Counted from the stretch's first letter, positions 18,256 to 55,299 are shown. The stretch: 64,000 nucleotides of DNA from a virus (IMGVR_UViG_3300020577_006271:1-64000), one strand, 5' to 3'. A program made the numbers and translations. Notes: generated by a model from the letters alone, not told the origin.

Positions 18256-18714
18256 TTATTCTTTCGTCCATACATAAATTTTATGGTTATTCCAGGTTTC
18301 TGTACTATCGATAAAATCTAGAAAATGTTTGGTTAAATAATATTCATATATGCGTGTTCGAGTTGTGCCGTCTGCTCCGTATTCGAATGAATTAATATCA
18401 TATTTGTCAACAAAATATCTCAATAACCCGAAGATGCAGGCCAATATTTTATTAGAATGCGGCACATTTAATAATTTAGATAAGTTCAATTGTTTATATT
18501 CAGAATTAGTATCTCCAAAATTTATTGCTAGTCTTTTGGGGTTAAACATTGGCAAAATTAATAACTGATAATACCAATCATTATACTTAATATTTACCAT
18601 AAACCTTCTCTTGCTTTCCGAGATAATTGAATAATCAATTCCGTATTCGTGAAGTTCTTCCGGTTTATATAAATCGATTATTTCAAATAAAATATCTGTT
18701 AATTTAATTGGCAT
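18256..18714 (-). CDS. Putative internal head protein, divergent leader MPIKLTDILFE
   Basis: N-terminus resembles MIKFKDILxE family. Confidence 0.55.
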   Translation of the reverse strand: MPIKLTDILFEIIDLYKPEELHEYGIDYSIISESKRRFMVNIKYNDWYYQLLILPMFNPKRLAINFGDTNSEYKQLNLSKLLNVPHSNKILACIFGLLRYFVDKYDINSFEYGADGTTRTRIYEYYLTKHFLDFIDSTETWNNHKIYVWTKE

Positions 18715-18739
18715 GCCCCATTTTATTATTTTAAATGTA

Positions 18740-18769
18740 AATATAATAATTTTATTTCAGAAAACCAAA
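18740..18769 (-). promoter_or_regulatory. Class II promoter (TTTGG-N19-TATATT)
   Basis: ccaaa 18765-18769; aatata 18740-18745. Confidence 0.55.
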
Positions 18770-19039
18770 TTATTTCTGATATTTTTTTAATCGTTTTTCT
18801 TGGTAGTCAATAAATTTGTTAAAGCCATCTCTTGCTTTACTGTCAGTTGTTTTTAGAAATTCGTTCACGGCAGTTAAAATTTTACGGTTGTTTAAATATT
18901 CATTCATTGAATGAATTTCCATAAGTGTCTGCATGTGCCCTAATGTAAAGGACCATTTTTTTATTTCTTTACGAACCCGTTTACCAACGAGCTTATGTTT
19001 ATCAATTGTTTGTTGGATTGAATCCGAATGAATCTTCAT
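18770..19039 (-). CDS. Hypothetical protein
   Basis: ORF track. Confidence 0.55.
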   Translation of the reverse strand: MKIHSDSIQQTIDKHKLVGKRVRKEIKKWSFTLGHMQTLMEIHSMNEYLNNRKILTAVNEFLKTTDSKARDGFNKFIDYQEKRLKKYQK

Positions 19040-19361
19040 ACACTAAAATTTTTATTTTACATTTCAACACGGTCAATTCGTCAATGACCCATTGTGTTTC
19101 AATACATCCTGGGTGATGAAATAATACGGCACCATCTACCGAATGTTTTAATTCGTCGAATCCGTTATAATATGCTGATTTAGCATTATGTTCGGCAACA
19201 AACCGTTCACAACAATGATCAATATGAGCTATCGAATTGCTATATAACATAAATGTAGATGCACAGATTAAACTTTCAGGCACAATTGTTTCGATAATAG
19301 TCTTGAATTTATTGTAATTCTTGAACTGATATGGACCATTAATAAATAAATTATACGCCAT
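19002..19361 (-). CDS. Possible degenerate SLOG/YspA-like protein
   Basis: INGPYQFKNY..F start and C-terminal G..T...I pattern. Confidence 0.35.
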   Translation of the reverse strand: MAYNLFINGPYQFKNYNKFKTIIETIVPESLICASTFMLYSNSIAHIDHCCERFVAEHNAKSAYYNGFDELKHSVDGAVLFHHPGCIETQWVIDELTVLKCKIKILVYEDSFGFNPTNN

Positions 19362-20577
19362 TAAGTTCGGTTAAAAATGATTCGATAGTTAAATGCCTTA
19401 ATAACATTTGTTCTACAGTCGACATCGTTGTCTGTGGTTTAAAATTTAAATCCTGTGTTATTTGGATACCGTAATAAGTCTCCACGAATTCCTTAATATC
19501 AGATTTCGATGGATAATCAACTAATAAACGGAAATTAATCCTTCCATCTCGATACAACGCTGGGTCGAAATCTTCAATATGATTTGTTGTAAACATGAAA
19601 ATCACATTGTCGGGAGATACTACACCATCCAATATTTGTAACAGTGTCGAAAACGATATGTTGCTTTTCTTGTTTAAATTGGATCTGGTTTTTGTTGATG
19701 TATAATCATCTATGTCTTCGAATAATAACACTGACGATGACTGCAATCCCTGTATATAATTAATTAATTCAGAATCTGATTTAAATGATCCTAAAGATAT
19801 CAGGTTCAGTTCCATTTTATATCGATGCGCAATAGCTTTAGCAATTGAAGTTTTACCAGTACCTGGTGGACCATATAACGATATTCCAGTTTTATGGTTG
19901 ATACCCATCTGATCGGATTTCCATTTATTATTTCTCCAACCATCCAAATATTCAAGCAAAGATTCTTTGCCCGGAAAATATATTTGATCAAATGTTTTGA
20001 ATTTATAAATGGTGTTAAACACCGATTGTCCATATCCTGGATTATAGGTCCTAAATGGGATTCCAGATGAGCCTATTAATGATGTCTGGTGGCTCTCAAC
20101 TACAGAATTGAAAAGATTAAGAATTGCATTGGCTGCAAATAATCCTGATATATGATATTCATCTGTATATGCATCGTGGCTGTTCGAAGCATGTTCTAGT
20201 TTTGCTCTAATTTTTTCAATCCTGATAAATCTACGATGATACCATATATAGTTTACATCTGAGTCTTGACGATATATCGGTTTAACTAGACGTGGACCGC
20301 CTTCAGTTGGGGAAATTACTACAATTTGCCCAATAGCACGTCGATATTTATTTGGATAACGCTGATTATACCAGTCCGAAAATATGTCATAAGTATCATC
20401 ATCGCGGTTTAAATATATACTGATTTCGTAATATATTAATTTCTTCAGTTGCCGGTAAATCGAGCCAGGGATTGGTTTCAATGTGTAAAAAATGCTGCTC
20501 AGTAACGCTATCACCAGACCGCCTTGTGTAAATTGGTTGTTTTCGACGATAGACTTAATAAATTCTATGTTAATCAT
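19351..20577 (-). CDS. BCS1-like AAA+ ATPase with N-terminal membrane anchor
   Basis: LYGPPGTGKTS, LFEDID, LLQILDG, FTTNH, DPAL.RDGRI. Confidence 0.85.
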   Translation of the reverse strand: MINIEFIKSIVENNQFTQGGLVIALLSSIFYTLKPIPGSIYRQLKKLIYYEISIYLNRDDDTYDIFSDWYNQRYPNKYRRAIGQIVVISPTEGGPRLVKPIYRQDSDVNYIWYHRRFIRIEKIRAKLEHASNSHDAYTDEYHISGLFAANAILNLFNSVVESHQTSLIGSSGIPFRTYNPGYGQSVFNTIYKFKTFDQIYFPGKESLLEYLDGWRNNKWKSDQMGINHKTGISLYGPPGTGKTSIAKAIAHRYKMELNLISLGSFKSDSELINYIQGLQSSSVLLFEDIDDYTSTKTRSNLNKKSNISFSTLLQILDGVVSPDNVIFMFTTNHIEDFDPALYRDGRINFRLLVDYPSKSDIKEFVETYYGIQITQDLNFKPQTTMSTVEQMLLRHLTIESFLTELNGV

Positions 20578-20804
20578 ACTCTAGGTATTCTGTGTTCTCG
20601 TTCTTCAGTTAGATATGCGGCTATTTCCCATAGTTTTCGAGCCTTTGTTGATGCAAATTCTGCAAAATAATCTGGGTCGGAATTTGCAATGCCATTGACA
20701 ATAGCAATAACAACATTTTCTTGAAATGCAAATTTATCTTTTGCTCTTCTTGCCGATAAGTCGATATACTTAGGGGTGCCAACATCTGGAAAATTATAAA
20801 CCAT
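20574..20804 (-). CDS. Hypothetical protein
   Basis: ATGA overlap. Confidence 0.55.
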   Translation of the reverse strand: MVYNFPDVGTPKYIDLSARRAKDKFAFQENVVIAIVNGIANSDPDYFAEFASTKARKLWEIAAYLTEEREHRIPRV

Positions 20805-21297
20805 ACGATTTGAAAATTTTTATTAATTTGTTCGTAAACTCTGTAAGAGTTGTATTATTTGTGATGATAATGTCCGCATCTTCTTTGGTTATATCAAATG
20901 AATCGGATGATTCCAATGGAAGTCGTTCACTTGCGTCTATCCATATTATCAAGTCGAACAATTTTTGTTTTTTACATTCTTCAATTTCAGCATGTGATCT
21001 CATCCCCACATACATGTCAGCCTTAGATAATACTTCTTTTGCAAGTCGTATTTTATCAACGGAATTATACAAGCATATTTCATCATACCATGCTTTCCTG
21101 TTATTCATACGGTCGGCAAAGCACTCGCCTATAGATTTGTATGATTTACCATATTTCGTATTCATTATGTCAAATAAGAAATTTTCTGCAGCACATTCCG
21201 ACGACGATTTAAATGTCAATCCAAAATGCTGATTTAAAATTTCAGCAGCGGTATCCTTTCCATGCCTTGCATGGCCAATAATTAGTAGTTTTTTCAT
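20794..21297 (-). CDS. Deoxynucleoside monophosphate kinase-like P-loop protein
   Basis: IIGHARHGKDT; G.R...E; D..I.N. Confidence 0.75.
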   Translation of the reverse strand: MKKLLIIGHARHGKDTAAEILNQHFGLTFKSSSECAAENFLFDIMNTKYGKSYKSIGECFADRMNNRKAWYDEICLYNSVDKIRLAKEVLSKADMYVGMRSHAEIEECKKQKLFDLIIWIDASERLPLESSDSFDITKEDADIIITNNTTLTEFTNKLIKIFKSYGL

Positions 21298-21309
21298 ATA
21301 AAATTTGTT

Positions 21310-21531
21310 TTATAGTTTACATTTCACGGTTAATACATGGTGTTTGATATCTGGTAATTGGGTATCAAGTTCTTTAGCAAGCTCAACGGCGTATGATTTG
21401 TCGGCGCTGATCCAAGCCTTTGAAAAATCAGCGCCGTAAACGCATGAGATTATATATTCTTCAATTACTTCATCGGTAACAAAAAACCCCTTCATTAAAG
21501 GTGCATAAATGACATATATGGATCGGTTCAT
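21310..21531 (-). CDS. Hypothetical protein
   Basis: ATGA overlap. Confidence 0.55.
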   Translation of the reverse strand: MNRSIYVIYAPLMKGFFVTDEVIEEYIISCVYGADFSKAWISADKSYAVELAKELDTQLPDIKHHVLTVKCKL

Positions 21532-22010
21532 TTTAATAATATATTTAAGATGTTAAAGTCATGAAAATCAAATTCTGTGGGAGTTTCTTTCATATAATAC
21601 GGAATATATTTTAGACATTTGATTCCGTTTGAATTCAATTGTTTGACGGTTTCGTCTCGGTCATCAACATGCAAATCAATCTTTAATCGTTTGCAAATAT
21701 CTAATTTATCTGCGGCAACATGTAATGGCCGATCTGGATATCCATTTTTACTAAGCCATCTACGTCTAGCATTTGCCATTGCCAGTGGCACTGCTGAAAT
21801 ATAACATGCAAAATCGAATTCAATCCGTTCTGGTCCATTTAACATTGGCATCGTTTCCCAAAATTCTTCATCGTTTTCAGTGAAGTGAAACAATAAATTC
21901 AGGCGTTCAACTTCCCATTGATTGTAATATTCAAATGGTAGATTAAATTTCACGCGCATGGCAGCATCGAAATCAGCTAATAGTCCATCTATATCTAAAG
22001 AAACCCGCAT
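21528..22010 (-). CDS. HAD-family 5'(3')-nucleotidase-like protein
   Basis: LDIDGLLADF, K, HVDDR. Confidence 0.8.
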   Translation of the reverse strand: MRVSLDIDGLLADFDAAMRVKFNLPFEYYNQWEVERLNLLFHFTENDEEFWETMPMLNGPERIEFDFACYISAVPLAMANARRRWLSKNGYPDRPLHVAADKLDICKRLKIDLHVDDRDETVKQLNSNGIKCLKYIPYYMKETPTEFDFHDFNILNILLK

Positions 22011-22287
22011 ATCTTGATTTTAATGAGTTATTTTTATTAAACTGTATATTTTATTAACTTAACCAATAAAGTTCAACAGAATTGATATAAACTATGTTAT
22101 TCGTAACGGCTTTTAATAGTGTACAATGCACCATCAGCATTAATGAAATGTACAACGTCTGCTTGGTGTAAACAAAGTTGAATATGTTGTTTGAAATGTT
22201 TACATCTAAGATCTCGGCCTTGTATGGATGAATAATCAGCAATTAAATCCTTTCTGGTTAATGTTATTATCATTATTTATTAATTTG

Positions 22288-22947
22288 CTAATTATTGAAT
22301 CTATCCATAACAGTCTGATCATCCTTAAACAACTCATATAGTCGGTCGAAACTGTTTAAATCATCCACAGTGCAACCTAATATAGTAGCAATGTAACTTG
22401 GAGAATCAGACACAAATTCTTCTTTAATTATCCTAGGCTTAGTTAATTTGGTTCCGGATATACCTAAATCTGTTTTATGGACTAACCAAACTCCAGATGG
22501 TACCCTTATATTTAATTCCAACCATTCATTTGGTGACCCAGAAAACAATTGTTCTTTCGTTTTAGATATAAGCGCTGCCATCATCAATTGATTACGTTTA
22601 GTTCCGGCTGACATTATAAACTCTCCCCATCTCATATCCTGAATGCAGAATATATCTAATCGAAATGGATTATGATCATAGTCAACAAATTCCATTGGCA
22701 TTGTTATTAAATGAAATCCAGAAGATATTTTTACATGATCGGTATAAAGCCACGGGAATTTATTAAAGAATTCTGGTATTGTGCAATTCACGATAACATC
22801 AACATCGCCAGATATGGGAACTTTGCCAAGTGATCCAACTATTTTGTGTGTCAATCCAGCTCCTGCTAACAAATTTGTAACCTTTTCTGCTATAAAAGCC
22901 GAATCTTCTAAGTTAATTGGTCGACAATATAAAATAGATTTACTCAT
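22288..22947 (-). CDS. Pol-beta-fold nucleotidyltransferase
   Basis: VGSLGK...SGDVDV and later RLDIF; likely start MSKSIL at 22947. Confidence 0.7.
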   Translation of the reverse strand: MSKSILYCRPINLEDSAFIAEKVTNLLAGAGLTHKIVGSLGKVPISGDVDVIVNCTIPEFFNKFPWLYTDHVKISSGFHLITMPMEFVDYDHNPFRLDIFCIQDMRWGEFIMSAGTKRNQLMMAALISKTKEQLFSGSPNEWLELNIRVPSGVWLVHKTDLGISGTKLTKPRIIKEEFVSDSPSYIATILGCTVDDLNSFDRLYELFKDDQTVMDRFNN

Positions 22948-23263
22948 ATGCTTTAACTTTGTGATCATATACTTCTGTTCCGTATAAATTACGAACTGCT
23001 GGAACAATTTGGGTCCATTCGATTTTTATTTTAAATTCAGCTATTAACTGATTAATCATATAATCAATTTTTTGCATGAAAATTTCTAATGGATATTTAG
23101 TCATCGAAGCACCAACCTGTTCCATTGGAACCGTTTTACCAGTTTTATGATAAACATAATTCCTGATAAATATAACATCTTGCTGATCGAATTGATTATA
23201 CTTGCGGTTATCTGCTAATATTAGCCGATATTTCAAATAATCTAAAACTTCTTCTCGTTTCAT
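22940..23263 (-). CDS. Hypothetical protein
   Basis: First gene after promoter 23281-23342. Confidence 0.65.
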   Translation of the reverse strand: MKREEVLDYLKYRLILADNRKYNQFDQQDVIFIRNYVYHKTGKTVPMEQVGASMTKYPLEIFMQKIDYMINQLIAEFKIKIEWTQIVPAVRNLYGTEVYDHKVKAYE

Positions 23264-23280
23264 ATTAAATAATTATACCA

Positions 23281-23342
23281 CAAATATACATGAATATTCG
23301 TTATAATGTATAATATTCCAATATTTTAACATTTATTTAACA
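23281..23342 (-). promoter_or_regulatory. Class I promoter: -7 TATATTTG plus box
   Basis: caaatata 23281-23288; TTAACA 23326 and 23337. Confidence 0.75.
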
Positions 23343-23962
23343 GATGTGTATTTATTGAATAGATCCATTATGTTGTCAATGGTCTCAACAATATTTTCCT
23401 TTGATACATTACAAACCAATTGATCTATTTGTTCTCTGACGTTTAAATGCCTGCAAACATCATCGAAAGTTGGCACTTCGAATTGTTTAAATCTTCCAAC
23501 CAATTCCTGTGTGTCCTTTTCAAAGGCAATGGTTACATTCTGTACAGAATAATATGCAGAAGGTGGAATGAGAAAATAATGATATTTATCGGTGTTTGGA
23601 TTATAGCACACGACTCGCAATGTTCCTATTTTCTTATAAGCGTTTTTTACTACGGCCTGGAATCTAGGTATTTTAACTTTTTTGTTAAGTTTACCCTTAA
23701 CAGTGGGGTGGAAATATTTCTCCTGGACTGTCACAGTTTTAACGTCGGTGTCGTCAATTAAATCTCGATGCTCTCCAATTGGACACATACCAATTCCGGA
23801 TTTCCTTGATATAGCCAATTCAGCTAATTGAGTGCCGTTAATAATATTGTCTTTTATCAAAGATTTAATCGTAACTTCAAGCCCCATTTCATGATAAGCT
23901 TTGTCCATAAAAAATTCGATCAACCTATCATTATGATGTTGATTTTTTGCAAGCGTGTGCAT
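23333..23962 (-). CDS. Hypothetical protein, possible PD-(D/E)xK nuclease
   Basis: LAE....RDLIDDTDVKT pattern. Confidence 0.4.
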   Translation of the reverse strand: MHTLAKNQHHNDRLIEFFMDKAYHEMGLEVTIKSLIKDNIINGTQLAELAISRKSGIGMCPIGEHRDLIDDTDVKTVTVQEKYFHPTVKGKLNKKVKIPRFQAVVKNAYKKIGTLRVVCYNPNTDKYHYFLIPPSAYYSVQNVTIAFEKDTQELVGRFKQFEVPTFDDVCRHLNVREQIDQLVCNVSKENIVETIDNIMDLFNKYTSVK

Positions 23963-23966
23963 CCTT

Positions 23967-24251
23967 TTAGTTTAATGTAGTTAAATAATTTTTTGTTTCT
24001 GGATAATTCTCATTGATATATTTATCAATGTCGATATCCAATATCGTAAAACGTATATGATTCATTCTGTCTAAATATTCGAAAACCTGACTTATTGGTG
24101 TTTCAATTAATGAAGATTCAATAATTAAGGTCTCAGAAATTTCAGTCATGAATGAAATGAAATTTTCAAATGTTTCATTTGCTGTGTTTAGTTGATATAT
24201 TTTTGGCGATATCACGCCATTTGGATTAAGTGTATTTATAGAGAAAACCAT
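23967..24251 (-). CDS. Hypothetical protein
   Basis: ORF track. Confidence 0.55.
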   Translation of the reverse strand: MVFSINTLNPNGVISPKIYQLNTANETFENFISFMTEISETLIIESSLIETPISQVFEYLDRMNHIRFTILDIDIDKYINENYPETKNYLTTLN

Positions 24252-24254
24252 CTT

Positions 24255-24905: not shown

Positions 24906-24927
24906 TTTAAACTCCTGTTTAAATTAT

Positions 24928-34605: not shown

Positions 34606-35079
34606 TTAAGGTTTTTTATATTGTATTCGGGGTGGATATATTTTTAGTGATTGACGCAATACGGGTGTTCCTCTTACTACATCACTTGTCCAAGGGTGAA
34701 CTTGCGCAGTATTTAAATTATAATTTGCAGCCAATTTTTTTGCCAAAAGTGTAACTTCTACACCAGTGTTTCCATTTGTGACGTCAATCCATTTACCTAA
34801 TGCATTTTTATATTCCTTCGGATAATAAATATGTATGGTAACAGAATCCCAAGAATCGAACTGTTCTCCATATTCAACAAATATGCTTTTCGCATAACTT
34901 TCGCCGTGTGCCTGAGTTAATTCCGCTTTGATATCTCTTAAATATAATTCAATCTTTTGTAATTCAGCTTTAATTCCCGCAAGTGATGCTTCATAATATC
35001 TAGAAAATCTATCAAAGATCTCATTGTTCACTTCATTAAAAGTTGCATTTTCGTTTAAAATATTTTTAAATTTAATCAT
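34606..35079 (-). CDS. Putative internal head protein, leader MIKFKNILNE
   Basis: Shared N-terminal leader. Confidence 0.7.
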   Translation of the reverse strand: MIKFKNILNENATFNEVNNEIFDRFSRYYEASLAGIKAELQKIELYLRDIKAELTQAHGESYAKSIFVEYGEQFDSWDSVTIHIYYPKEYKNALGKWIDVTNGNTGVEVTLLAKKLAANYNLNTAQVHPWTSDVVRGTPVLRQSLKIYPPRIQYKKP

Positions 35080-38393: not shown

Positions 38394-40403
38394 CTATAAA
38401 CGTTTGTATTGAATGTTATCAAAAAATGTTAATATGCCAGATAATTGAGTTACCCAATCCGAATCAGCTGTAAAAGTGTGAGTCACTGACCTAACCATAA
38501 AATATGATTTTGTGTCAAAATAATTTTGTGTCAGGTGGTTTGTAGCAATGGCATTTCCAATTGTGAATCCATAACAACCATCTAATGTCACATCTAATTC
38601 TAAACCTGGATAGGTTGGTAGATCATGTTGCTTTGAATGCGATGATGGTTTTGAAATTGTTAATGTGTTAACAGCAGATTGCAACGACGATTCTTTTTCT
38701 GGGTTAAACCTAGTTTCAATTAATTCCCCCGGAACTTTAATAAGTTTTAAGACATCCGTTTGAGCCTTATTAAATGCAATTGTTCTTTTTACGTCTATCT
38801 TAGCTAGTTTATCAGGTGTGATATTGTGGACCGGGTCGCCTTGTGAAGTTTGACCTGCCATCATTGCCGATGCCATTTCAGCAGACCCAGCATTAGATCT
38901 AAGATTAATTGATCTAGATGATCCATCTCCATCTATTCCGTTAAATACAATGCAATCTAATTTCTTAGCATATCCATTTCGTTGATCAACAATGACCAAA
39001 TAATCTGTTTTTTCAGGATGTTGTGTTAATGTTAAATTTATAGATCCACCGGATGCTTCTTTAATCGTTGTGAAAATTTTTGAAAGAAAAACCATAACAT
39101 TTATTGATTCGCCAGTTTTTGTTTTATCATTGATTTTGTCTGAGTTGGATTCTTCTTTTTTGGCTGCTTCATCTAAAGCATCTAATATAACAGAGCGTTC
39201 TAATATAATTTTTTTAAAATCAATAATATTTGACGGACCATTTGATCCTTCGACAGCCTTTATTGGCTCCAGACCTGCTCCGCCTACTTTTTCAAAATTG
39301 ATTCCGAGTTCATCTCCTACTGAATATGTTCCAGCATAATTTCCTTTGTTATTTCCTGCGAATACGCATTGCGTAGGTAATCCAGAAATAATTGCTTTAC
39401 TGATATAAGATTTAGAAAGAACTGGATCAAATACAATGGCGGTTGGTGAAAATTGTGCTGCCAATATAACATCATCTTTATATTTCATATGCGTATGGCC
39501 CATAATTAATCGGTTGACAATGTATTCTAACGTGTAATAGACAATATTTACCGATGAAGTAGTTGACGACGCACCTAAATAACCTTCTTGTATAGATTGC
39601 CAAGCTTTACCGACTCTACCGCTGAGATATGTTTTATGTGATGCCTTGTAAACTATAACAGCACCCGGTTTAGAACTAAATCCCTTTTCTGACAATGTAT
39701 ATGTATGATTTCTATCGGGAATGAAAGACACTCCATCATTACCAGACAAATTTATATCGTCGATTGCTTTTTGCCCATTTTGTTGGGCGTCGAAGGTCAT
39801 TAATTCTAATAACCCTTGAACATTTAGGGTTTCTCTGCCTGACAAATATGACAATCCATTAAATTTACCACCAACCAATGTCTCTAATTTCTTTAAAGCT
39901 TCTGTTGCTCTAACTGCAGAACCCTTAACAATGTAACATCCTTGGTCATCTGTGTTAAATTCAAATGTAACCAACAAGAATTTTTCAACCTTAATGTATT
40001 GTTGATCTACTATCCAATGCTTAGGATAACCAAACTCAGCTGAAATCTCAGTTCCATATCGACAAAAGACTTTCTCTATTTCCTTGAATGTTTCCCGATC
40101 AAAACATTTAATTGACCACGACAATCCTTCTTTAAACCCATATTCAGTGGGAGAATATGTAATTGTTGCTTCTTCAAGTGATGGATAAGGTTTAAATTTA
40201 TTGTATTGAGATTCTGGGAATGAATCAGATAATCTTACTCCTGGAACCGTTGCACTTCCACCTTCACCCTTTCCAGTCAATTTAAAGTAGGCTGGGTTTC
40301 TTGTTGCGGCTTTATAATGCGGACCGTTTTTAAAAAGGTCCAGGCGTTTTTGTAAGACTCCTAACGCACCATGAGTTGGATTATTTCTATAAACGTTTTC
40401 CAT
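38394..40403 (-). CDS. Putative baseplate hub protein
   Basis: C-terminal LDVTLDG..G..IG...V.SV.H.F...W.T.L pattern typical of gp27/VgrG-like hubs; position. Confidence 0.55.
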   Translation of the reverse strand: MENVYRNNPTHGALGVLQKRLDLFKNGPHYKAATRNPAYFKLTGKGEGGSATVPGVRLSDSFPESQYNKFKPYPSLEEATITYSPTEYGFKEGLSWSIKCFDRETFKEIEKVFCRYGTEISAEFGYPKHWIVDQQYIKVEKFLLVTFEFNTDDQGCYIVKGSAVRATEALKKLETLVGGKFNGLSYLSGRETLNVQGLLELMTFDAQQNGQKAIDDINLSGNDGVSFIPDRNHTYTLSEKGFSSKPGAVIVYKASHKTYLSGRVGKAWQSIQEGYLGASSTTSSVNIVYYTLEYIVNRLIMGHTHMKYKDDVILAAQFSPTAIVFDPVLSKSYISKAIISGLPTQCVFAGNNKGNYAGTYSVGDELGINFEKVGGAGLEPIKAVEGSNGPSNIIDFKKIILERSVILDALDEAAKKEESNSDKINDKTKTGESINVMVFLSKIFTTIKEASGGSINLTLTQHPEKTDYLVIVDQRNGYAKKLDCIVFNGIDGDGSSRSINLRSNAGSAEMASAMMAGQTSQGDPVHNITPDKLAKIDVKRTIAFNKAQTDVLKLIKVPGELIETRFNPEKESSLQSAVNTLTISKPSSHSKQHDLPTYPGLELDVTLDGCYGFTIGNAIATNHLTQNYFDTKSYFMVRSVTHTFTADSDWVTQLSGILTFFDNIQYKRL

Positions 40404-40873
40404 TATAGTGTGTTAAAATATTGTTCAAGTTCGTAATCAGTCTTAAAATATTTTATGTCTTTGGGCTTATAATGCACCATTTCTCTACCCTTAATAATAA
40501 CACCATCATAACCTTTTTTCATCATTTCATCTTCAATTGTAAATCCTTTCGCTTCAAAATTTCTAACATCCATTACTGATGAGTCCAATCCAAGAGCATC
40601 TTGTTTAAGTTTATGCCTATAAATTTCCCAACTATTCAAACCATCAAAAATTTTAGGGTTTTTAGGAATTGCATTTACAACAAAATACACATCACCATAT
40701 TGTTTGGCCATTGATTTATTTGATAGTGGAACAGTATATAATCCATTACCAATTGAACCATAAACTTGATTATCACTCCCCAAATTTTTTATACCTCGTA
40801 ACGTTACATTTTTTCGTTTCCAATTCTTAAAATCTGAAGTTGATTCTAAAATAATATCTTTAAATTTAATCAT
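40403..40873 (-). CDS. Leader-bearing protein with ADP-ribosyltransferase (ART-PolyVal-like) domain
   Basis: MIKFKDIILES leader; GNGLYT, AKQYG.VY.V, KNP, GYDGVII...E.V. Confidence 0.65.
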   Translation of the reverse strand: MIKFKDIILESTSDFKNWKRKNVTLRGIKNLGSDNQVYGSIGNGLYTVPLSNKSMAKQYGDVYFVVNAIPKNPKIFDGLNSWEIYRHKLKQDALGLDSSVMDVRNFEAKGFTIEDEMMKKGYDGVIIKGREMVHYKPKDIKYFKTDYELEQYFNTL

Positions 40874-41195: not shown

Positions 41196-41747
41196 TTATT
41201 TGCCCGGGGTCATTTTACCGTCAGACTGATACTTTCCGGTATAATAATCACCTTTATTTTTATAATCTGGTTTCTTTGATCCTACAACTTGCAATGTCGC
41301 CGAACAGTTAATGTATATGGGCAAATTATCTATCCACGGTGTATCATTATTAATATCAATGGTAAATGATGTTAATATACCGTATTCATCGAGCAGCTTT
41401 CCAATTTTCATTTTAGTAAAAATTCCGTTAAATCCTCGCCCAGGTTTATAAATTGGTCTAGTTTGACGGGCTACATTATTTAATGCTTCCAAATAAAATG
41501 TATGCTCTCCATTATATAATGCTGCAGTAATGAAATTAACTGAAATTGTACGTTGGTATGAGTCATATTTCATTTTCGGATCTGCTCTACCTATATCCAT
41601 ATTCGATGACCATGATGGACTATGATTATCAGAAATACTGTGTATAAACGCAGGAAATTTGATAATAGGTCCCGGTCCTTCAGATGGTATGAATGCCTGA
41701 AAGGAAAATTCCGTTGGTATAGCTTCTGTCCGTAAGGTTGCCGCCAT
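41196..41747 (-). CDS. Baseplate / tube-initiator protein
   Basis: FPAFI.SISD.HS.SW...GRAD...Y..Y.R.IS..F. Confidence 0.6.
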   Translation of the reverse strand: MAATLRTEAIPTEFSFQAFIPSEGPGPIIKFPAFIHSISDNHSPSWSSNMDIGRADPKMKYDSYQRTISVNFITAALYNGEHTFYLEALNNVARQTRPIYKPGRGFNGIFTKMKIGKLLDEYGILTSFTIDINNDTPWIDNLPIYINCSATLQVVGSKKPDYKNKGDYYTGKYQSDGKMTPGK

Positions 41748-41989
41748 TAAATATTTTTATAAATCAATTTAAATTTTGGTAATGCCTTCTCCATCTCAGT
41801 AATTAGAAATCCTAAATTAACTGAATCTAATTTACCTGAATCCATAGCTTTTTTTGTAGTGACCATCGTTTTAAATAATGGTAACATTGTTTGCTGAGCC
41901 ATTCTAGTGCCATTCGAATTTTCATTCAATTTTTTACTAATTGCAGATTCAGTTAATTTAACTATTTGTTTGATTTGTTCTTTTGTCAT
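41747..41989 (-). CDS. Putative internal head protein, long leader
   Basis: MTKEQIKQIVKLTESAISKKLNE. Confidence 0.7.
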   Translation of the reverse strand: MTKEQIKQIVKLTESAISKKLNENSNGTRMAQQTMLPLFKTMVTTKKAMDSGKLDSVNLGFLITEMEKALPKFKLIYKNI

Positions 41990-42709: not shown

Positions 42710-42985
42710 TTATAAATGAGAAATCATTTTAATTTCATCTTCTAACGTATCGTGAAATCTATAATCCAATTTACTCATTTCTTGGTGTAATTCTCGGATT
42801 TTAGTATTGCCTGGGTTAGATTTTCGCATTTTACCTAATGTGATAGCCATATCTTCTATAGCAGTTTGTGCAAGTCTATGCGAATGCCTAAGTTGGTCTC
42901 CATCAGGTGAATTACCTTCATTCAATTTTTTATTAACGATTGTTTCCGTTAATTTAACTATTTGTTTGATCTGTTCTTTTGTCAT
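42710..42985 (-). CDS. Putative internal head protein, long leader
   Basis: MTKEQIKQIVKLTETIVNKKLNE. Confidence 0.7.
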   Translation of the reverse strand: MTKEQIKQIVKLTETIVNKKLNEGNSPDGDQLRHSHRLAQTAIEDMAITLGKMRKSNPGNTKIRELHQEMSKLDYRFHDTLEDEIKMISHL

Positions 42986-47632: not shown

Positions 47633-47636
47633 CTGA

Positions 47637-48447: not shown

Positions 48448-48681
48448 TTATTTTCGTATTTCTTTTTTGTATGTTATATTAACTCTACCTTTGCACATAG
48501 GAGAATCTGGATATGCTTTACAATACCAAGACATATTGTCTTCTAATTGCTTAATATCCTGTTGTACTTTTTTAAATTCTCCTTCTAATCCAGGATCGGT
48601 TACTTTTATGGATGCTGCTATTTTTCCCATTTCAGCTGACATGCGTCTGGATATTAGCATTTTTATTAGTGATCCTATCAT
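48448..48681 (-). CDS. Hypothetical protein
   Basis: ATGA overlap. Confidence 0.55.
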   Translation of the reverse strand: MIGSLIKMLISRRMSAEMGKIAASIKVTDPGLEGEFKKVQQDIKQLEDNMSWYCKAYPDSPMCKGRVNITYKKEIRK

Positions 48682-48905
48682 GATTTATTATAGGTATTTC
48701 GAATTGAACGGAATTCACTGATGTCACTTAATGCTTCACTTAAATTATCCATCAGGATACTGTATTTTTCCTTAAGATCCGTTTCAATGTGCAACGCTTT
48801 CATTTTTTTCAAACTTGTCCAAATATCAGTTTCGACATCGTTTAATTGTTTATCGATTTCGTCTGTCATGTAAGACTCGAAAAGTATGTCTTTAAATTTT
48901 ACCAT
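48678..48905 (-). CDS. Putative internal head protein, leader MVKFKDILFES
   Basis: Shared leader. Confidence 0.7.
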   Translation of the reverse strand: MVKFKDILFESYMTDEIDKQLNDVETDIWTSLKKMKALHIETDLKEKYSILMDNLSEALSDISEFRSIRNTYNKS

Positions 48906-48964
48906 ATACAATATATAGTTAAATTAAATTAATTTTCTTAATTAAGTATGCCATTATTCATCTA

Positions 48965-49026
48965 CAAATATACATACAAATTTTAAATCGTCAAAATTAA
49001 ATTCAATTATTAACATTAAATTAACA
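48965..49026 (-). promoter_or_regulatory. Class I promoter: -7 TATATTTG plus box
   Basis: caaatata 48965-48972; TTAACA 49010 and 49021. Confidence 0.7.
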
Positions 49027-49035
49027 ATTAAGGTG

Positions 49036-49068
49036 AAAAAAGAGCCAATCGTTGTGAAAGGCTCTTTT
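49036..49068 (-). terminator. Intrinsic terminator after tail tube gene
   Basis: AAAAGAGCC...GGCTCTTTT hairpin with U tract on minus strand. Confidence 0.7.
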
Positions 49069-49092
49069 AATCTAATATAGTGCGATTATTGG

Positions 49093-49554: not shown

Positions 49555-49583
49555 ATCAATTAATTCCTTTTATTATAAATAGT

Positions 49584-51995
49584 TTAATTTTGAGTTTTTA
49601 CTGTGTCAACTGGAAATACTGCCCCGGTTGGTAAAACATTAAAATCAACTATAATAAATTCTGCTGTTTTAGCAGGCTTTAAATAAATTTGTGCACGCAT
49701 TTCGTTTCTATCGACTACTTCAGGACTATTGTTTTTTTCATCTATAATAATTCTAAAGTCGTATAAACCCTGTTTTCTTCTACAATCTTCAAACCATGGA
49801 TTAGTGATATTTAAGAAATTATTTCGAGTTTCTATTGTATTTTGTTCAAATACTAAATATTTACTCGTTGCTGCTACATGTCGTTTTGCTGCGATTAATA
49901 ATCTTCTTACATTAATTCTATCTAATGCTGAACGTTTTTTCTGTAATGTTTTTTGACCCCAAACAACTACACCATTTCTAGGGAACGTTGCAATTGGATT
50001 AACAGATTTTTGATATAGATTATCTCGGTCGCCTTGTGTCATAATCCGTTCAGTTTGAATTGCTTGTTCCAATCCACCTCTGTTTAGACCTGCTGGCGCG
50101 AACCATTTTTGACCAAAATAGTCATTAAATGAAAACACCCCAGTCATAACAGCACTTGGTGGCAACCATACATTATCTCCTAAATTAGGATCAGTGAACT
50201 GAATCCATGGATAATACATACCTGCATAATTACTATTTCTTCCATCAGCTGCTCTTTGAGCATCACCTACATTCTTACCGTAAGGAACTGGGTCAACTAT
50301 GTAGAAACAGTCTCCTCTATCTTCAACCATTGATATCGCTCTGGTTATAATTTGTGCGTGTGATGGCAATAAATCAAATAAACCTGGAGTAACTAATAAG
50401 TCAAAATCAAATTGATCTTTATTGCTCATCATATCAATGGCGTCTAGATAATTGGTTTGACCATATTCAGCTCTGGCAACATTTAATCCTTGTGTATTGT
50501 ATTCCCAAATATTTTCATTCATTGCTTTTGGATTGGCAACATTTCCGTCAGAACCAAATGCTAATATTCCCAATAATGGAGTTTGAACAGTGGATGATAT
50601 AGTAGTTACCTTAGAGAATTTACTAATATCAGTCGATTCAATAATACCTAATGTAACTTTCGATGGCATCACACCAGCAGCAGTTGCAACAGCAGGAGTT
50701 GCTAATACCAACGTTGTATCATTAGTTATAGTCGCAATTGAATGCCATTCAGTTCCAAATTTAATTACATCGCCAACTTTCAATTCTGTTGTAAATAATG
50801 TATTTACTCCAGTTACAGCAGTTGAAGCAGCCGTAACACTAATTGTACCAGTTAATCCTGTGGTTGGTGTGGTATTAGTTACACCAGTAATATTAATTTT
50901 TCCAACATAAGTAGGAGTGAATGCTGCTGGCAAATGTTCAACATTGTTGAAGTCTCTGACGAAGCCATCTTCAGTTAAATAGTTAAGAGTTTTTCTGAAA
51001 ACGACCACTCTAACGTATCTAGATTTGTTTGGATAGTTTCCTTTTAATTGTAAATAAGGCACACCACTTGAATCAGCTTGTAATGCGTAATATTGAGTAC
51101 CAATTACTTTTTCAATATAGTTTGGTTGAGTTGGGTCTAGTGTAACTCCACTGAAACTTTCTAGGATAAATCTTCTTTGGCTGGAGTCATCACCACGTCT
51201 AATGTTAAGATCGAATGTACCTCTTAATGGATCTACATTTGTAACTTCCCATCTAATATTGTACGGTGTTCCTTCACGTAAGATATCTAAATCTTCCATA
51301 TCCCCATTTGGATTATCCTGAGCATCATAAACGCTCGTTTTACCATTCAGTGCTGAAATTTTAGTTCCCGAATTTGTTGAATCTCCATCTGACAACGCGA
51401 CTAATTGGAATGACATTTGTGATTTCGCGGCATCAAATGATGTCTGCCAAGCACTATTATAAGCTGAATCAATTAAATCATTAATAGCCGCAAATTCTGC
51501 TTCAGTTAGTGCATTATTAGTAGATGTATTATCTACCATGCTATCATAATCAGCTCTTAAATATGAGGTTGAATTAGCTGCATTAAAATCTGCAATTGCA
51601 TCATCAATATAATCTTCACGATTCATTAATGTTGGTAATGTGATTGCAGCACCAGAAGCAGATTTAGCTAATACATTACTTTTTGCTGGGGCAAACCTAT
51701 TACCCAATATTCTAACAACTGTAGCAACTTCTCCATATCGTAAATATTCTTCTACTGCGTATGATGTCAGATATTTAAACTCTCTTTCTTCAATTCCTGA
51801 TCCAGATGTAAATACATCTCCGAACCATCTAAGATATTCTGAATATGATGATACTGGAGTCGGTACCATCGCTGGACCTCGCATTGTTGGTCCGATAACG
51901 GCCATGCCCACTGCTGGTGAAACAAGTGGATAGAATGATAAATCTATTTCACGTGTGTAGACACCTGCGGACAAAAAGCTATTTTTTAATGCCAT
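49584..51995 (-). CDS. Tail sheath protein (gp18-like)
   Basis: SAGVYTREIDLS, YYPW, WFAPAG.NRG, GQKTLQ, RINVRRL, AEFI. Confidence 0.95.
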   Translation of the reverse strand: MALKNSFLSAGVYTREIDLSFYPLVSPAVGMAVIGPTMRGPAMVPTPVSSYSEYLRWFGDVFTSGSGIEEREFKYLTSYAVEEYLRYGEVATVVRILGNRFAPAKSNVLAKSASGAAITLPTLMNREDYIDDAIADFNAANSTSYLRADYDSMVDNTSTNNALTEAEFAAINDLIDSAYNSAWQTSFDAAKSQMSFQLVALSDGDSTNSGTKISALNGKTSVYDAQDNPNGDMEDLDILREGTPYNIRWEVTNVDPLRGTFDLNIRRGDDSSQRRFILESFSGVTLDPTQPNYIEKVIGTQYYALQADSSGVPYLQLKGNYPNKSRYVRVVVFRKTLNYLTEDGFVRDFNNVEHLPAAFTPTYVGKINITGVTNTTPTTGLTGTISVTAASTAVTGVNTLFTTELKVGDVIKFGTEWHSIATITNDTTLVLATPAVATAAGVMPSKVTLGIIESTDISKFSKVTTISSTVQTPLLGILAFGSDGNVANPKAMNENIWEYNTQGLNVARAEYGQTNYLDAIDMMSNKDQFDFDLLVTPGLFDLLPSHAQIITRAISMVEDRGDCFYIVDPVPYGKNVGDAQRAADGRNSNYAGMYYPWIQFTDPNLGDNVWLPPSAVMTGVFSFNDYFGQKWFAPAGLNRGGLEQAIQTERIMTQGDRDNLYQKSVNPIATFPRNGVVVWGQKTLQKKRSALDRINVRRLLIAAKRHVAATSKYLVFEQNTIETRNNFLNITNPWFEDCRRKQGLYDFRIIIDEKNNSPEVVDRNEMRAQIYLKPAKTAEFIIVDFNVLPTGAVFPVDTVKTQN

Positions 51996-52070
51996 ATTTT
52001 TAATCCTTCAAATTTAATAAAATAAATAGTTAGAAGGCGTGGCAAACGTAGGTTTTATCAGTGGTAAATT

Positions 52071-52904
52071 TCAAGATAGGTCATCGGATAGCATGGTTGG
52101 AGTTATTTTTAATCCAGGCGGCCCAATGATTTTTGGTCTAGGCATGTAATCAACAGCAAAGTCTGGTTCGCCCCATTCATTTGTGAAATCAACTCGCTTG
52201 ATGGTATATGCTTTCTGAACATCTGCTTGGTTTGCTGTAAATTCATTTCTTAGCATACCATGAACCGTTAACGGTACCGTAGCTTTAATGACTCGGTCTT
52301 CACCTGAGTTATTTATTTGTTCGAATTGAAACTCTCCCACATCCGTCGAAAATTGAAAATTATCTCCCCAAAGGCTTTGATCATACGTTAATACCTGTTC
52401 AACAATTGTATTTAATTGACTCTGTTGGTGCGTCCATATCATTAATTCGTAGTTAACTATGACAGTGGTAGGTATGACCGAAATCAAATATTCATATGAT
52501 TCATTGGTATTATCAGTGCGAGATAAATTGTTGAACTTATCCGCTTTATTTTTTGGTGGTAAATATAATAATTTACCAGCAACATCCGAAAATTGAAACA
52601 TTTCATCTTCTAATAATGAAATGCGTTTAATAACAATTAATGGCGCCATTAATTTATTGTCAGAAGTTCTTAATAACGCTCCATATTTTTGTATTTGTGC
52701 CCACTTTTCTCCGGCGGCCATTATGACTGGGACTTCTATCATTTCATTATCGGATTCAATCCGAAGTTTCATACCATTTTGTAATTGCCAAAGAATAGCA
52801 TAATCAATATCGTAGATAGTGATGGCAGGAATTAACTTACTATCACTATTTTCATCTTTCCTGATTAAAGACTTGTTGATATCTTTGGATTCTCTGAATT
52901 GCAT
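52071..52904 (-). CDS. Tail terminator / sheath stabiliser (gp15-like)
   Basis: VPVI....EKW, P.I.IKR, Y.L.IWT....Q.N.IVEQ; position. Confidence 0.65.
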   Translation of the reverse strand: MQFRESKDINKSLIRKDENSDSKLIPAITIYDIDYAILWQLQNGMKLRIESDNEMIEVPVIMAAGEKWAQIQKYGALLRTSDNKLMAPLIVIKRISLLEDEMFQFSDVAGKLLYLPPKNKADKFNNLSRTDNTNESYEYLISVIPTTVIVNYELMIWTHQQSQLNTIVEQVLTYDQSLWGDNFQFSTDVGEFQFEQINNSGEDRVIKATVPLTVHGMLRNEFTANQADVQKAYTIKRVDFTNEWGEPDFAVDYMPRPKIIGPPGLKITPTMLSDDLS

Positions 52905-53188
52905 TATAATACGGTTCCGCCGCTAATGTCGTCAAGTATGCCGATTGCTTTTCTGAAATCCCAATAAGAATGCCTTGTCGATTTGTCCCAATCGGCTATG
53001 TCATATTGTCTCATTATTTCCAAAATTTTATCTATATATGGAGCCATCTTCTTAATCGAGCGTTGTATAATTCGAGTATCTTCAGGAGTCCAGCCTTCAA
53101 GAGTTTTTTTAGTTGAAGATTCGTTCAATTTTTTATTAACGATTGATTCAGTTAATTTTACTATTTTCTTAATTTGATCTCTTGTCAT
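52904..53188 (-). CDS. Putative internal head protein, long leader
   Basis: MTRDQIKKIVKLTESIVNKKLNES. Confidence 0.7.
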   Translation of the reverse strand: MTRDQIKKIVKLTESIVNKKLNESSTKKTLEGWTPEDTRIIQRSIKKMAPYIDKILEIMRQYDIADWDKSTRHSYWDFRKAIGILDDISGGTVL

Positions 53189-53189
53189 A

Positions 53190-53528
53190 TCATTTATCCT
53201 TATTTTTTATGCCCTTCTTCAAGGAGCGAATTACCCAACGTAAAGTTTCAATGATATCATAATCGTCAAACTTTAATTTTTCTGAATGAAATTTATTTCC
53301 GTCGAGTGGTTCGGTATATTTAATGGTAATATCTGTTTTACCAATTGTTATTGGCTTAAACTCATAAACAGATTCCCATGTACCATTCGGTTCAATTGCA
53401 TACCATTCATCTTTAATGGATTGATCAATCAACGTGTTTGCTTCGTCAACCAATTTTTTAACTTGGAACGGTATATTAGTTCCTCCAGTAGCTTCGTTTA
53501 ATTGAAATATGTCTTTAAATTTTATCAT
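53190..53528 (-). CDS. Putative internal head protein
   Basis: MIKFKDIFQLNEA. Confidence 0.7.
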   Translation of the reverse strand: MIKFKDIFQLNEATGGTNIPFQVKKLVDEANTLIDQSIKDEWYAIEPNGTWESVYEFKPITIGKTDITIKYTEPLDGNKFHSEKLKFDDYDIIETLRWVIRSLKKGIKNKDK

Positions 53529-53540
53529 TTTAATCCTTAT

Positions 53541-53747
53541 TTATCGTATCCTAGGTTCAATATAATCTAACGCTTCAAGGGCATCGCGTTTAGTATATAT
53601 TTGACGTCCAGTTTTTTCTTGAGCTAAATTAATTAATTTTTGCAGGGCCACTTTATATTCAGTTCCCGCTTTCCTTTTTTGCATAATTGATAGCAAATTA
53701 TCAATTTCTGAATTAGACTCATTTAATATATCTTTAAATTTTATCAT
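53541..53747 (-). CDS. Putative internal head protein
   Basis: MIKFKDILNES. Confidence 0.7.
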   Translation of the reverse strand: MIKFKDILNESNSEIDNLLSIMQKRKAGTEYKVALQKLINLAQEKTGRQIYTKRDALEALDYIEPRIR

Positions 53748-53793
53748 TATATTGCTGCCTTTATTGATGAAAGAAATCTTGTTTTAAATAATT

Positions 53794-54192
53794 CTACAAT
53801 TTGGTTTGTCTAATTATTGAATCGGGTATTATTAATCTAGGAAATTCTTTCCTATCAAACCATTTAAAATTTAAATTGAATTTGGTATTTAATAGGTTTT
53901 CAATCGGTTCTATAAATGATTCTAAATCATTAGGTATATTTCTACGATTGATAAAATATATTTCTACCGCATTCCATGCATCTTTAGTTGCGTAAACTTT
54001 ATAATCACCAGCGGATGTAATTTTTCGTTGAGTTTTACCATCGGTTCCTCTGATTATAGTTGGGGCCGCCCTTTCTATATAACCCCCTTTTAAATCAGTC
54101 GTTGACATATATTTTTCAATCAACCTTTTAATTTGTTGTTGAACTCGAATCACATCATTTGATTCTAATAATATATCTTTAAATTTTATCAT
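53794..54192 (-). CDS. Putative internal head protein
   Basis: MIKFKDILLES. Confidence 0.7.
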   Translation of the reverse strand: MIKFKDILLESNDVIRVQQQIKRLIEKYMSTTDLKGGYIERAAPTIIRGTDGKTQRKITSAGDYKVYATKDAWNAVEIYFINRRNIPNDLESFIEPIENLLNTKFNLNFKWFDRKEFPRLIIPDSIIRQTKL

Positions 54193-54204
54193 TTTTTTTC
54201 CTGT

Positions 54205-55299
54205 TTATACTGCTGCGCTCAATGCTGTTAAAAATCGGGTTTTGAATAATTCAGATATTTGGCCTGTCTTTTGTAATTCGTTTGCCAATTGACTTATTTG
54301 ATCTGCTGTGCCATTGGGGTTGGCTTTCTTTGCCTGGTATAAAAATTGCTTGGCCATTCCTGCAAACGAATTACCTAGAAATTCAATCATATCTAATTTC
54401 CAAGCTGGATCAACACCTTGTACAACTGGTGCTGCTGGTGCAGGTGCTGTTACTGGTGCAGGTGCTGCTAATGGAGCTTCATTTATTTTTTTTGATTCTG
54501 TTAGATTTCTTCCGTTGATAGATATAATATCCAGATCGCTTGATTTTTTATCATCCCATTTACCTTGGTTAGTTAATATGTATTCTTGTTTATGAAAAGA
54601 TGATTTTAATCCACGTTGATTCATATCACGCACACTATACTCTTCTTCAACATATATCGAACGTATTGGGTTAGTATGGTCAAGTTTAACAACCTTTAAT
54701 ACATCTCCATTTCTAATAGTAACGCTGTCACCAACCTTTAGTTTTTTTGATATGTCGATTTTTTTAGATTCATTTACCGTATAAGTTTGCCTAAAACCAT
54801 TTTTATCCATCGGATGACCTAAGGTAACTTCATCAGTTTCTCCATCATCAGATTTTAGAAATAACTCCTGATATGATCCGTAATTTTTAAAATCGGTTAC
54901 CTTGAATTTCTTTTTATCCAATTTACGATAAACGAATGTGTTTTTCCAGCCGCCATCAACAGATTCACCTAAATTAGGATTGAACACATCTGAACCTGGA
55001 TGATATTTATCAATTAACCTGTCAATTATTTGTTCAAGTTTAACGCCAGCAGATTTTGCATCCGTTCTAAGTTGACCTAATATTAATTTGAAATTATTTT
55101 GATCTATTGTTCCAGCTCTTTTTGCCGATGCTAATTGATTGATGAAATTTTTCTGGGTCATCGTTCCAGATATTACATCTCCGATTGCAAAGATTGCTTC
55201 TCTTTTATTTTGGAATGGTGCAACTGTTGATTCATTCAATTTTTTATTGATTGTCGTCTCAACTAATCTAACAATTTCTCTTAAACTATTTTTATTCAT
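54205..55299 (-). CDS. Putative internal head polyprotein
   Basis: Start MNKNSLREIVRLVETTINKKLNES at 55299; internal LGES, VNES, LTES, INEA. Confidence 0.65.
   Translation of the reverse strand: MNKNSLREIVRLVETTINKKLNESTVAPFQNKREAIFAIGDVISGTMTQKNFINQLASAKRAGTIDQNNFKLILGQLRTDAKSAGVKLEQIIDRLIDKYHPGSDVFNPNLGESVDGGWKNTFVYRKLDKKKFKVTDFKNYGSYQELFLKSDDGETDEVTLGHPMDKNGFRQTYTVNESKKIDISKKLKVGDSVTIRNGDVLKVVKLDHTNPIRSIYVEEEYSVRDMNQRGLKSSFHKQEYILTNQGKWDDKKSSDLDIISINGRNLTESKKINEAPLAAPAPVTAPAPAAPVVQGVDPAWKLDMIEFLGNSFAGMAKQFLYQAKKANPNGTADQISQLANELQKTGQISELFKTRFLTALSAAV

Follow-up and report, generated by a model that had tools for sequence, protein, structure and literature searches.

Leader-bearing genes of the window and the genome

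The stretch analyzed here, called the window, comprises bases 1–64000 of the 162,683-bp IMG/VR virus record IMGVR_UViG_3300020577_006271 (32% G+C; CheckV completeness estimate for the full record, 88%). Judged from its genes in PHROG and Pfam scans, the phage is a distant T4-like myovirus of the T4 superfamily. An initial annotation of the window had described two N-terminal leaders shared by at least 11 genes, and had proposed that they are interchangeable address tags that load a variable set of effectors into the capsid. All 11 leaders were recovered at the starts of minus-strand open reading frames (ORFs), and five of the genes do stand in tandem at 52904–55299. Genes are named below by their start positions. 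The short class, M-I-K-F-K-D/N-I-L-x-E, begins the genes at 35079, 40873, 48905, 53528, 53747 and 54192. The long class, 23 aa ending in K-K-L-N-E, begins those at 41989, 42985, 53188 and 55299, and a divergent short form, M-P-I-K-L-T-D-I-L-F-E, begins the gene at 18714. The list gives scores against hidden Markov models (HMMs) of the leaders, and conservation in a close relative, contig IMGVR_UViG_3300012020_000006 (L010), the backbone genes of which have 94–99% nucleotide identity to those of this phage.

18256–18714, minus strand: divergent short-leader gene, 152 aa; 11-aa leader at 18682–18714; the weakest member
34606–35079, minus strand: short-leader gene, 157 aa; leader at 35050–35079; HMM 20.2 bits; adjoins the gene for a gp32-like single-stranded DNA-binding protein (SSB)
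40403–40873, minus strand: short-leader gene, 156 aa; leader at 40844–40873; predicted ADP-ribosyltransferase-like fold; inside the baseplate module
41747–41989, minus strand: long-leader gene, 80 aa; 23-aa leader at 41921–41989; HMM 55 bits
42710–42985, minus strand: long-leader gene, 91 aa; leader at 42917–42985; HMM 53.7 bits; directly after the tape-measure gene
48678–48905, minus strand: short-leader gene, 75 aa; leader at 48876–48905, beginning M-V-K-F-K-D; HMM 20.9 bits
52904–53188, minus strand: long-leader gene, 94 aa; leader at 53120–53188; HMM 54.2 bits
53190–53528, minus strand: short-leader gene, 112 aa; 12-aa leader ending in L-N-E at 53493–53528; HMM 15.8 bits
53541–53747, minus strand: short-leader gene, 68 aa; leader at 53718–53747; HMM 22.4 bits; 96% conserved in L010
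53794–54192, minus strand: short-leader gene, 132 aa; leader at 54163–54192; HMM 20.3 bits; cassette absent from L010
54205–55299, minus strand: long-leader gene, 364 aa; leader at 55231–55299; HMM 46.5 bits
62614–64000 and on to genome position 64251, minus strand: gp23-type major capsid gene; PF07068, E 9e-54

The sharing of these leaders is far beyond chance. De novo clustering of 1258 candidate ATG starts returned a short-leader cluster of 12, by far the largest, while chance clusters had at most 3 members. In the six-frame translation, the short-leader HMM matched ORF starts only (9–22 bits; next best, 5.9), and the long-leader HMM gave 46–55 bits with a next best of 5.1; the scan found no internal leader copies, all 12 short and four long leaders being at ORF starts. 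A degenerate leader DNA pattern had 11 matches in the genome and none for the reversed control. All 17 leaders examined, 10–13 aa long in the short class and 23 aa in the long class, terminate in L-x-E or I-x-E, and the residue that follows is mostly S, N or A. Similarity ends abruptly at this point, as the initial annotation had noted: the mean pairwise identity of the leader genes is 0.88 over residues 1–8 and 0.09 over residues 11–20.

The status of the 18714 leader is less firm. Its HMM score of 2.4 bits is not significant, and the one line of support for its classification as a divergent member is the occurrence of similar leaders in other phages (M-I-K-L-T-N-I-L-x-E and M-K-L-T-D-I-I-V-E). 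The product of this gene has a weak Pfam match to DUF6934, below the cut-off.

Further tagged genes were found past the window. Six more short leaders start at genome positions 87060, 87541, 88414, 89114, 150675 and 151048, and a decayed-looking copy lies at 87881. A third leader family has two members, starting at 101506 and 104420; membership of the long class was considered for both and was ruled out by the HMM (3–4 bits), so they were kept as a separate two-member family. The region containing them (101324–104970) is a two-gene unit duplicated in tandem, in which a small gene beginning M-S-T-K-L-R-Q-I is followed by a paralogue of ~152 aa; the leader-like sequences of this third type end in I-N-E or L-T-E. 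The genome thus totals ~19 tagged genes: 12 clear short, one divergent short, four long and two of the third type. Two single genes outside the 19, at 138678–139106 (plus strand) and 85886–86182, begin with leader-like sequences that end in V-N-E and I-S-E. The product of 138678–139106 has a Y-H-G-T motif and a faint PHROG match to RNA 2'-phosphotransferase, and may, by these sequence features, be another protein with an ADP-ribosyltransferase (ART) fold.

Tagged genes occupy at least six loci; some are in the neck, tail and baseplate modules, others in a tRNA cluster. Their reported location among neck, tail and baseplate genes holds for most of those in the window, with two exceptions: the 35079 gene adjoins replication genes, and the 18714 gene lies among non-structural genes. 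The surrounding genes identified by PHROG and Pfam encode sheath, tube, baseplate hub, tape measure, baseplate wedge subunit, gp13-like head-tail adaptor and sheath stabilizer, as well as a UvsX-like recombinase, the gp32-like SSB and a DnaB-like helicase. Genes for terminase, portal, gp21-type protease and gp23-type capsid protein are found just past the window end, which the last of these spans. The 48905 gene, between the tail tube and baseplate hub genes, is 99% conserved in L010.

The tRNA cluster (genome ~141,980–152,940) contains 12 tRNAs, one of which has a four-base anticodon according to ARAGORN (L005 1385–1461). Two short-leader genes, 150675–151055 and 151048–152253, lie inside the cluster on the plus strand, far from the structural modules. 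The N-termini of the ORFs at 86273–86728 and 142413–142946 look, by sequence only, like GIY-YIG homing endonucleases, and one of these ORFs directly adjoins a five-gene leader island at 86.7–89.1 kb.

Leaders and cargos as separate modules

The comparison with L010 indicated where the tagged genes come apart. At three sites homology stops at the last leader base. The 53528 gene has an identical leader in the relative, homology stops at 53494 and a different cargo lies beyond; for the 53188 gene homology extends to 53117, and the same leader heads another cargo, of 129 aa; for the 42985 gene homology ends exactly at 42917, again with a different cargo beyond. The relative lacks the 53794–54192 cassette, which has been deleted between two leader repeats; the joint (54169 / 53811) maps within the repeat. 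Given the breaks at leader ends and a deletion junction within a leader repeat, the repeats behave as recombination joints. Cargo turnover, for which the initial annotation had suggested a scan of related genomes, was exact at leader ends in this close relative. Exchange of tags and cargos as modules is documented with unusual clarity at the level of sequence comparison. The relative also keeps the 41989 gene, the long leader of which contains an inner L-T-E in addition to its terminal L-N-E.

A 51-aa ORF of the relative (L010:6908–7063) consists of the exact 12-aa leader of the 53528 gene fused to a diverged sheath-stabilizer-like C-terminal end. The C-terminal part derives from the neighboring 277-aa sheath-stabilizer-like gene, of which it is a diverged copy. 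The ORF is, from its sequence, probably a scar of recombination at the leader.

Since breakpoints fall at the leader, the repeat itself might be a nucleotide-level element that enhances translation initiation or serves recombination or homing, with a functionless peptide. The AT-richness of the leader and its position at the start codon fit such an element as well. However, leader codons 2–7 contain 12 synonymous and three non-synonymous departures, so that codons vary freely while amino acids are kept. The DNA 5' of the leader ATG is unrelated between genes; conservation begins at the ATG and ends at the Glu. The excess of synonymous departures, together with conservation confined to the stretch from Met1 to Glu, indicates that selection acts on the peptide. 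Moreover, the peptides differ across phages while the spacing between a hydrophobic-x-Glu motif and the cargo domain that follows it hardly changes, and recombination at the repeat is compatible with a functional peptide. We consider a purely nucleotide-level element highly improbable.

The tagged genes could alternatively be diverged paralogues of one family in which only the N-terminus has been conserved. The description of their downstream parts as unrelated stands at the BLAST level inside the window; it does not extend to a weak pair reaching past the window, the products of the 40873 gene and of the gene at genome position 87060 (E 0.003), both of which look like ART folds. Three small long-leader proteins are also similar in size. 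Common descent is nevertheless hard to reconcile with mature lengths of 38–391 aa, with different predicted folds (ART in some, a nucleotidyltransferase plus a Cys/His domain in another), with a fall in identity from 0.88 to 0.09 within two residues, with replacement of cargo exactly at the leader end, and with the presence of the same cargo behind unrelated leaders elsewhere. Paralogy is, on this evidence, barely credible.

Other phages provided two cargo families in which the tag varies. The 156-aa cargo (40403–40873) has more than 300 relatives. A hydrophobic-x-Glu occurs no more than 12 aa before the domain in 109 of the 111 members that could be anchored on W-K-R-K-N. These carry 102 distinct leader strings, with lengths that peak near 9–10 and 17–18 and a smaller group at 21–24. 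Cargo of one kind thus stands behind short tags in some phages and behind long tags in others. The second family involves the 401-aa cargo of genome 151048–152253, which is composed of an N-terminal Cys/His domain and a C-terminal domain joined by I-R-E within a linker of predicted local distance difference test (pLDDT) below 50. Elsewhere, the Cys/His domain occurs behind two other short leaders, and in longer proteins after T-E/D-E joints. Proteins consisting of the C-terminal domain by itself carry at least four other leader types. Counted over both domains, at least five other leader types were found. The presence of the same cargo domains behind many different leaders supports the proposed interchangeability of the tags.

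Across 24 IMG/VR contigs (27–40% G+C), the exact short leader is found at the start of ORFs for at least eight cargos besides those of this phage. An S77 protease is encoded in three of the five large leader-bearing contigs, including the only complete genome. By DNA pattern, exact leader copies number one or two in those other genomes versus 11 here, pointing to an unusually large tag set in this phage. A search of IMG/VR for the exact long-leader DNA pattern found only the close relative, so the long class is more thinly documented than the short.

The nearest cultured phages by capsid protein identity are Microcystis phage Mel-JY01 (48%), Flavobacterium phage immuto (45%) and Rhodothermus phage RM378 (33%); megablast of 16 kb of the window against a phage collection gave no nucleotide-level match. 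The leaders of Mel-JY01 are of the type M-I-K-L-K-S-L-L-x-E and stand at positions 60276, 60923, 62056 and 96964 of that phage. Phage immuto has no M-I-K-F-K-D leader, and only three other two-copy N-terminal families were found in it. In the head modules of more distant relatives, a gene with a long-type leader immediately follows that of the protease. The 277-aa leader protein of another contig (L007) had no match in a tblastn search of cultured phages, and the string K-F-K-D-I-L was not found in a literature search.

The 364-aa long-leader protein is a special case. It has a conserved C-terminal domain of ~90 aa and a variable middle, which is replaced in several relatives. Of its 11 relatives, most begin with a long-leader variant, and every one except the weakest shares the C-terminal domain. 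The variants at these N-termini favor the ATG at 55299 over an upstream TTG as the start. Because the relatives keep the long leader and the C-terminal domain and only the middle varies, this protein may, from its sequence, be more than tag plus cargo. The ESM Atlas was uninformative for it (best score 0.76). Between this gene and a neck gene lies a 57-aa ORF (55401–55574, minus strand). The close relative lacks this ORF, and there the neck and 364-aa genes abut.

The prohead protease, its candidate substrates and the cargos

Besides the tags, their module boundaries and the turnover of their cargos, the analysis showed a prohead protease of the T4 gp21 type, gp21 being the enzyme that the initial annotation had cited for removal of the T4 tag, and other candidate substrates for it. 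The protease gene lies at genome 70561–71187 and scores 118.6 bits to PF03420 (Peptidase_S77). Its product aligns to the T4 gp21 structure 5JBL (E 1.5e-22), with His and Ser at the positions where the crystal chain has Ala; we take these positions to be the catalytic residues of gp21. His77 and Ser131 of the phage protease are invariant in seven relatives. L-L-E (residue 47) and L-R-E (residue 56) lie in the N-terminal propeptide of the full capsid protein, which is of the gp23 type and 545 aa long; residue 1 of mature T4 gp23 maps to about residue 44 of this protein. By these sites the capsid protein is a predicted substrate of the same protease as the leaders. An acidic, scaffold-like protein of 284 aa starts M-S-L-L-N-E, and the N-terminus of the protease itself contains N-L-S-E.

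Directly after the protease gene, on the minus strand (genome 69481–70557), is a gene for a 358-aa protein that matched no Pfam or PHROG family. It contains 10 [LI]-x-E sites; the background is 1.27 per 100 aa. Four of the 10 have the form (K/R)(K/R)-L-(N/K)-E or D-L-N-E, among them K-K-L-N-E, R-R-L-N-E and R-R-L-K-E, and the K-K-L-N-E type is the very site that ends the long leader. From this arrangement of sites, the protein looks like a core protein that the protease would cut into pieces. One internal stretch of it resembles the second half of the long leader.

These sites bear on a reading in which the leaders are propeptides that the protease removes, for example to keep enzymes inactive until maturation, and carry no address information. 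The terminal hydrophobic-x-Glu is indeed the only feature common to all leader classes across phages, and in T4 the determinants of processing and of targeting are separable; with Asp at position 10 of the T4 tag, processing is blocked and targeting is not. A bare site, however, needs only three residues, and residues 2–7 are as strictly conserved as the cut site, which makes a bare propeptide unlikely. In addition, the equivalent 10 residues suffice for packaging in T4, and a protease confined to the prohead can cut only proteins that are already inside it.

Alternatively, some other machine of the phage, a modifying enzyme or a chaperone for example, could recognize the leader. A single radical-SAM-like ORF is present, with a score of 13.5 bits, and no leader gene adjoins it. 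The leader genes at their various loci share no non-structural neighbor, and the tag ends in a site that is also present on the capsid and core proteins of this phage. Recognition by such a machine is therefore quite improbable. A radical-SAM-linked tag in particular was rejected for this genome, as the ORF is weak and not beside leaders; a 7-deazaguanine role is suggested for it by the Pfam-confirmed FolE, QueC and QueD elsewhere in the genome. Genes for GTP cyclohydrolase I, QueC and a QueD/PTPS-type enzyme, with the weak radical-SAM ORF, were found at genome 115427–118691, 125177–125608 and 160115–160969. As a set, these predicted genes suggest 7-deazaguanine DNA modification. A myo-inositol-1-phosphate synthase-like gene and a methyltransferase gene lie beside them.

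Next, we considered what the cargos are. Mature cargos measure 38–391 aa (4.5–45 kDa) and have mixed pI. For most of them, Pfam and PHROG gave nothing above the cut-off except ART-PolyVal and two PHROGs of unknown function. The ART-PolyVal match (PF18760) was obtained for the cargo of genome 86725–87060, with 45.3 bits (cut-off 31.2; E 2e-11), and its domain starts at residue 14. In the AlphaFold (AF2) model of the 40873 protein, pLDDT is 87 overall and below 50 for leader residues 1–6; in the alignment-based AlphaFold model of the 401-aa cargo, leader residues 1–13 are below 50 and the domains are confident. The low leader pLDDT and the start of ART-PolyVal at residue 14 place the leader outside the cargo fold, which contradicts the possibility that it is an integral part of one shared domain.

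The best Foldseek match of the 40873 protein is the anti-CRISPR entry 6KYF (probability 1.0, E 7e-4), presumably AcrIF11, which has been described as an ADP-ribosyltransferase. The next matches are a pre-ejectosome chain of cyanophage A4, and then diphtheria-toxin and PARP domains, to which the protein has VIA Z 5.0–6.5 over ~100 residues. With Z values only this high, the ADP-ribosyltransferase assignment is a fold-level lead. The ESM Atlas likewise leads to ART-PolyVal, and a Pfam search with 40 members of the family gave no match. From the family alignment, the invariant R26, Y46 and E131 could be an NAD-binding triad. The C-terminal domain of the 401-aa cargo resembles aminoglycoside nucleotidyltransferases and CD-NTases (E 2e-4).

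The cargos identified so far are thus enzyme-like in sequence and model: two of predicted ART fold, and one Cys/His plus nucleotidyltransferase-fold protein. Some cargos are effector-like in this sense, in line with the initial annotation; most of the others have no recognizable family. On the modeled folds, some cargos are likely enzymes that act on host proteins or nucleic acids.

Capsid targeting in T4 and its proposed counterpart in this phage

In T4, internal proteins (IPs) carry the capsid-targeting sequence (CTS) M-K-T-Y-Q-E-F-I-A-E, the 10 residues of which are sufficient for packaging. Within the CTS, residues 4 and 7 are important to targeting and residues 8 and 10 to processing; the propeptides are 10–19 aa long (PMC9026906). 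According to reviews, T-even phages have variable sets of internal proteins with CTS-like sequences (PMC3012670, PMC9026906). The system described here is alike in having 10 aa counted from Met1, in which position 4 is aromatic, position 6 acidic and position 7 hydrophobic, with L/I at 8 and Glu at 10. It is also alike in its homologous S77 protease, gp23-type capsid protein and portal, in otherwise unrelated cargos, in cargo sets that vary among relatives, and in the existence of longer leaders. It differs in leader sequence, in the number of tagged genes (~19, as read from the genome, versus three IPs), in the scatter of these genes over the genome, in a 23-aa amphipathic long class with two nested sites, and in one cargo composed of two modules joined by a predicted protease site. 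Unlike the T4 IPs, the cargos are not uniformly basic.

By this likeness and by the sequence evidence above, the leaders are probably T4-type capsid-targeting propeptides in an enlarged set; we put the probability at about 0.8. The interpretation offered in the initial annotation is thereby supported, and all of its computationally testable predictions held. The principle has already been published for T-even phages, and this phage is an expanded case rather than a new system.

Several points weigh against the reading of the leaders as capsid-targeting propeptides. The phage is uncultivated and known from sequence alone. Its leader and the T4 CTS share a pattern resemblance only, at positions 4, 6, 7, 8 and 10, and a decapeptide is too short for a significant alignment, so that homology to the CTS is not demonstrable. 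The structural modules do not include the tagged genes 18714 and 35079. The strong conservation of the 40873 protein and the place of its gene among baseplate genes would also fit a role in virion structure or assembly, in place of injection as cargo. In the cargos, internal [LI]-x-E sites are weakly depleted (17 observed versus ~24 expected), which is not significant. A scan for T4 late-promoter-like motifs upstream of the leader genes gave no usable enrichment, and the fold matches of the modeled cargos are middling (Z 5–6.5).

Other known systems resemble parts of the arrangement. T4 Alt is a head-packaged ADP-ribosyltransferase that is trimmed by gp21 and injected (PMC9026906; PMC5512222); Alt-family genes are associated with baseplate genes, and Alt belongs to the R-S-E-2 clade (Iyer et al., PMC5512222). 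Similarly, the ART-fold proteins predicted here carry a protease-type N-terminal propeptide, and the 40873 gene sits in the baseplate module; their predicted relationship, in contrast, is to ART-PolyVal or to diphtheria toxin and PARP. The polyvalent proteins of phages and conjugative elements contain effector domains, e.g., ART-PolyVal, which are predicted to be delivered with DNA (Iyer et al. 2017, PMC5512222). Two modules of this kind are combined in the 401-aa cargo. Unlike polyvalent proteins, the cargos of this phage are mostly small one-module proteins that are individually tagged, not parts of one giant multidomain protein, and their release is predicted to occur by the head protease at L/I-x-E joints. 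In the giant phages phiKZ and SPN3US, the ejection proteins bear propeptides; a gp21-like prohead protease cuts many head-internal proteins, as proposed here, and head proteins are ejected into the host (PMC5694885, PMC7411985, PMC10052503).

Targeting, cleavage, head retention, injection and cargo function are what we infer from these parallels, and the course of events would be as follows. A protein would be made with either the 10-aa tag M-I-K-F-K-D-I-L-x-E or a 21–23-aa amphipathic tag ending in K-K-L-N-E. The tag would draw the protein into the prohead scaffolding core while the shell assembles. The gp21-type serine protease would then cut after the Glu of the hydrophobic-x-Glu, as it would in the capsid, scaffold and core proteins, and the mature cargo would be kept in the head and exit with the DNA at infection. 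The near-identical leader repeats of 30–69 nt may double as recombination joints, by which cargos would be swapped, gained and lost between related phages. As a self-contained module, the tag would turn any gene that acquires it into cargo.

Taken jointly, the observations allow a broader and more tentative proposal, which we regard as possible and somewhat doubtful. The tags may serve both as address and as recombination joint for a cassette exchange of injected enzymes among environmental T4-like phages, these enzymes including ADP-ribosyltransferases and nucleotidyltransferases and some protease-cut polyproteins. The short and long classes might address different places in the prohead core, or different copy numbers, with the long amphipathic class co-assembling with scaffold-like helices. 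The injected proteome of uncultivated phages would then be readable from sequence.

With ~19 tagged genes, base-exact cargo swaps and two cargo families in which tags are exchanged across lineages, this phage is a clean case. Because the principle is not new, the case has value for its breadth and its candidate effectors rather than for novelty of mechanism. Should the tags function like those of T4, the proteins that an uncultivated phage injects could be listed from its genome. The effectors injected in the first minute would, if so, be prime candidates for host takeover and anti-defense, and the tags themselves are potential packaging handles for engineering phages of non-model hosts.

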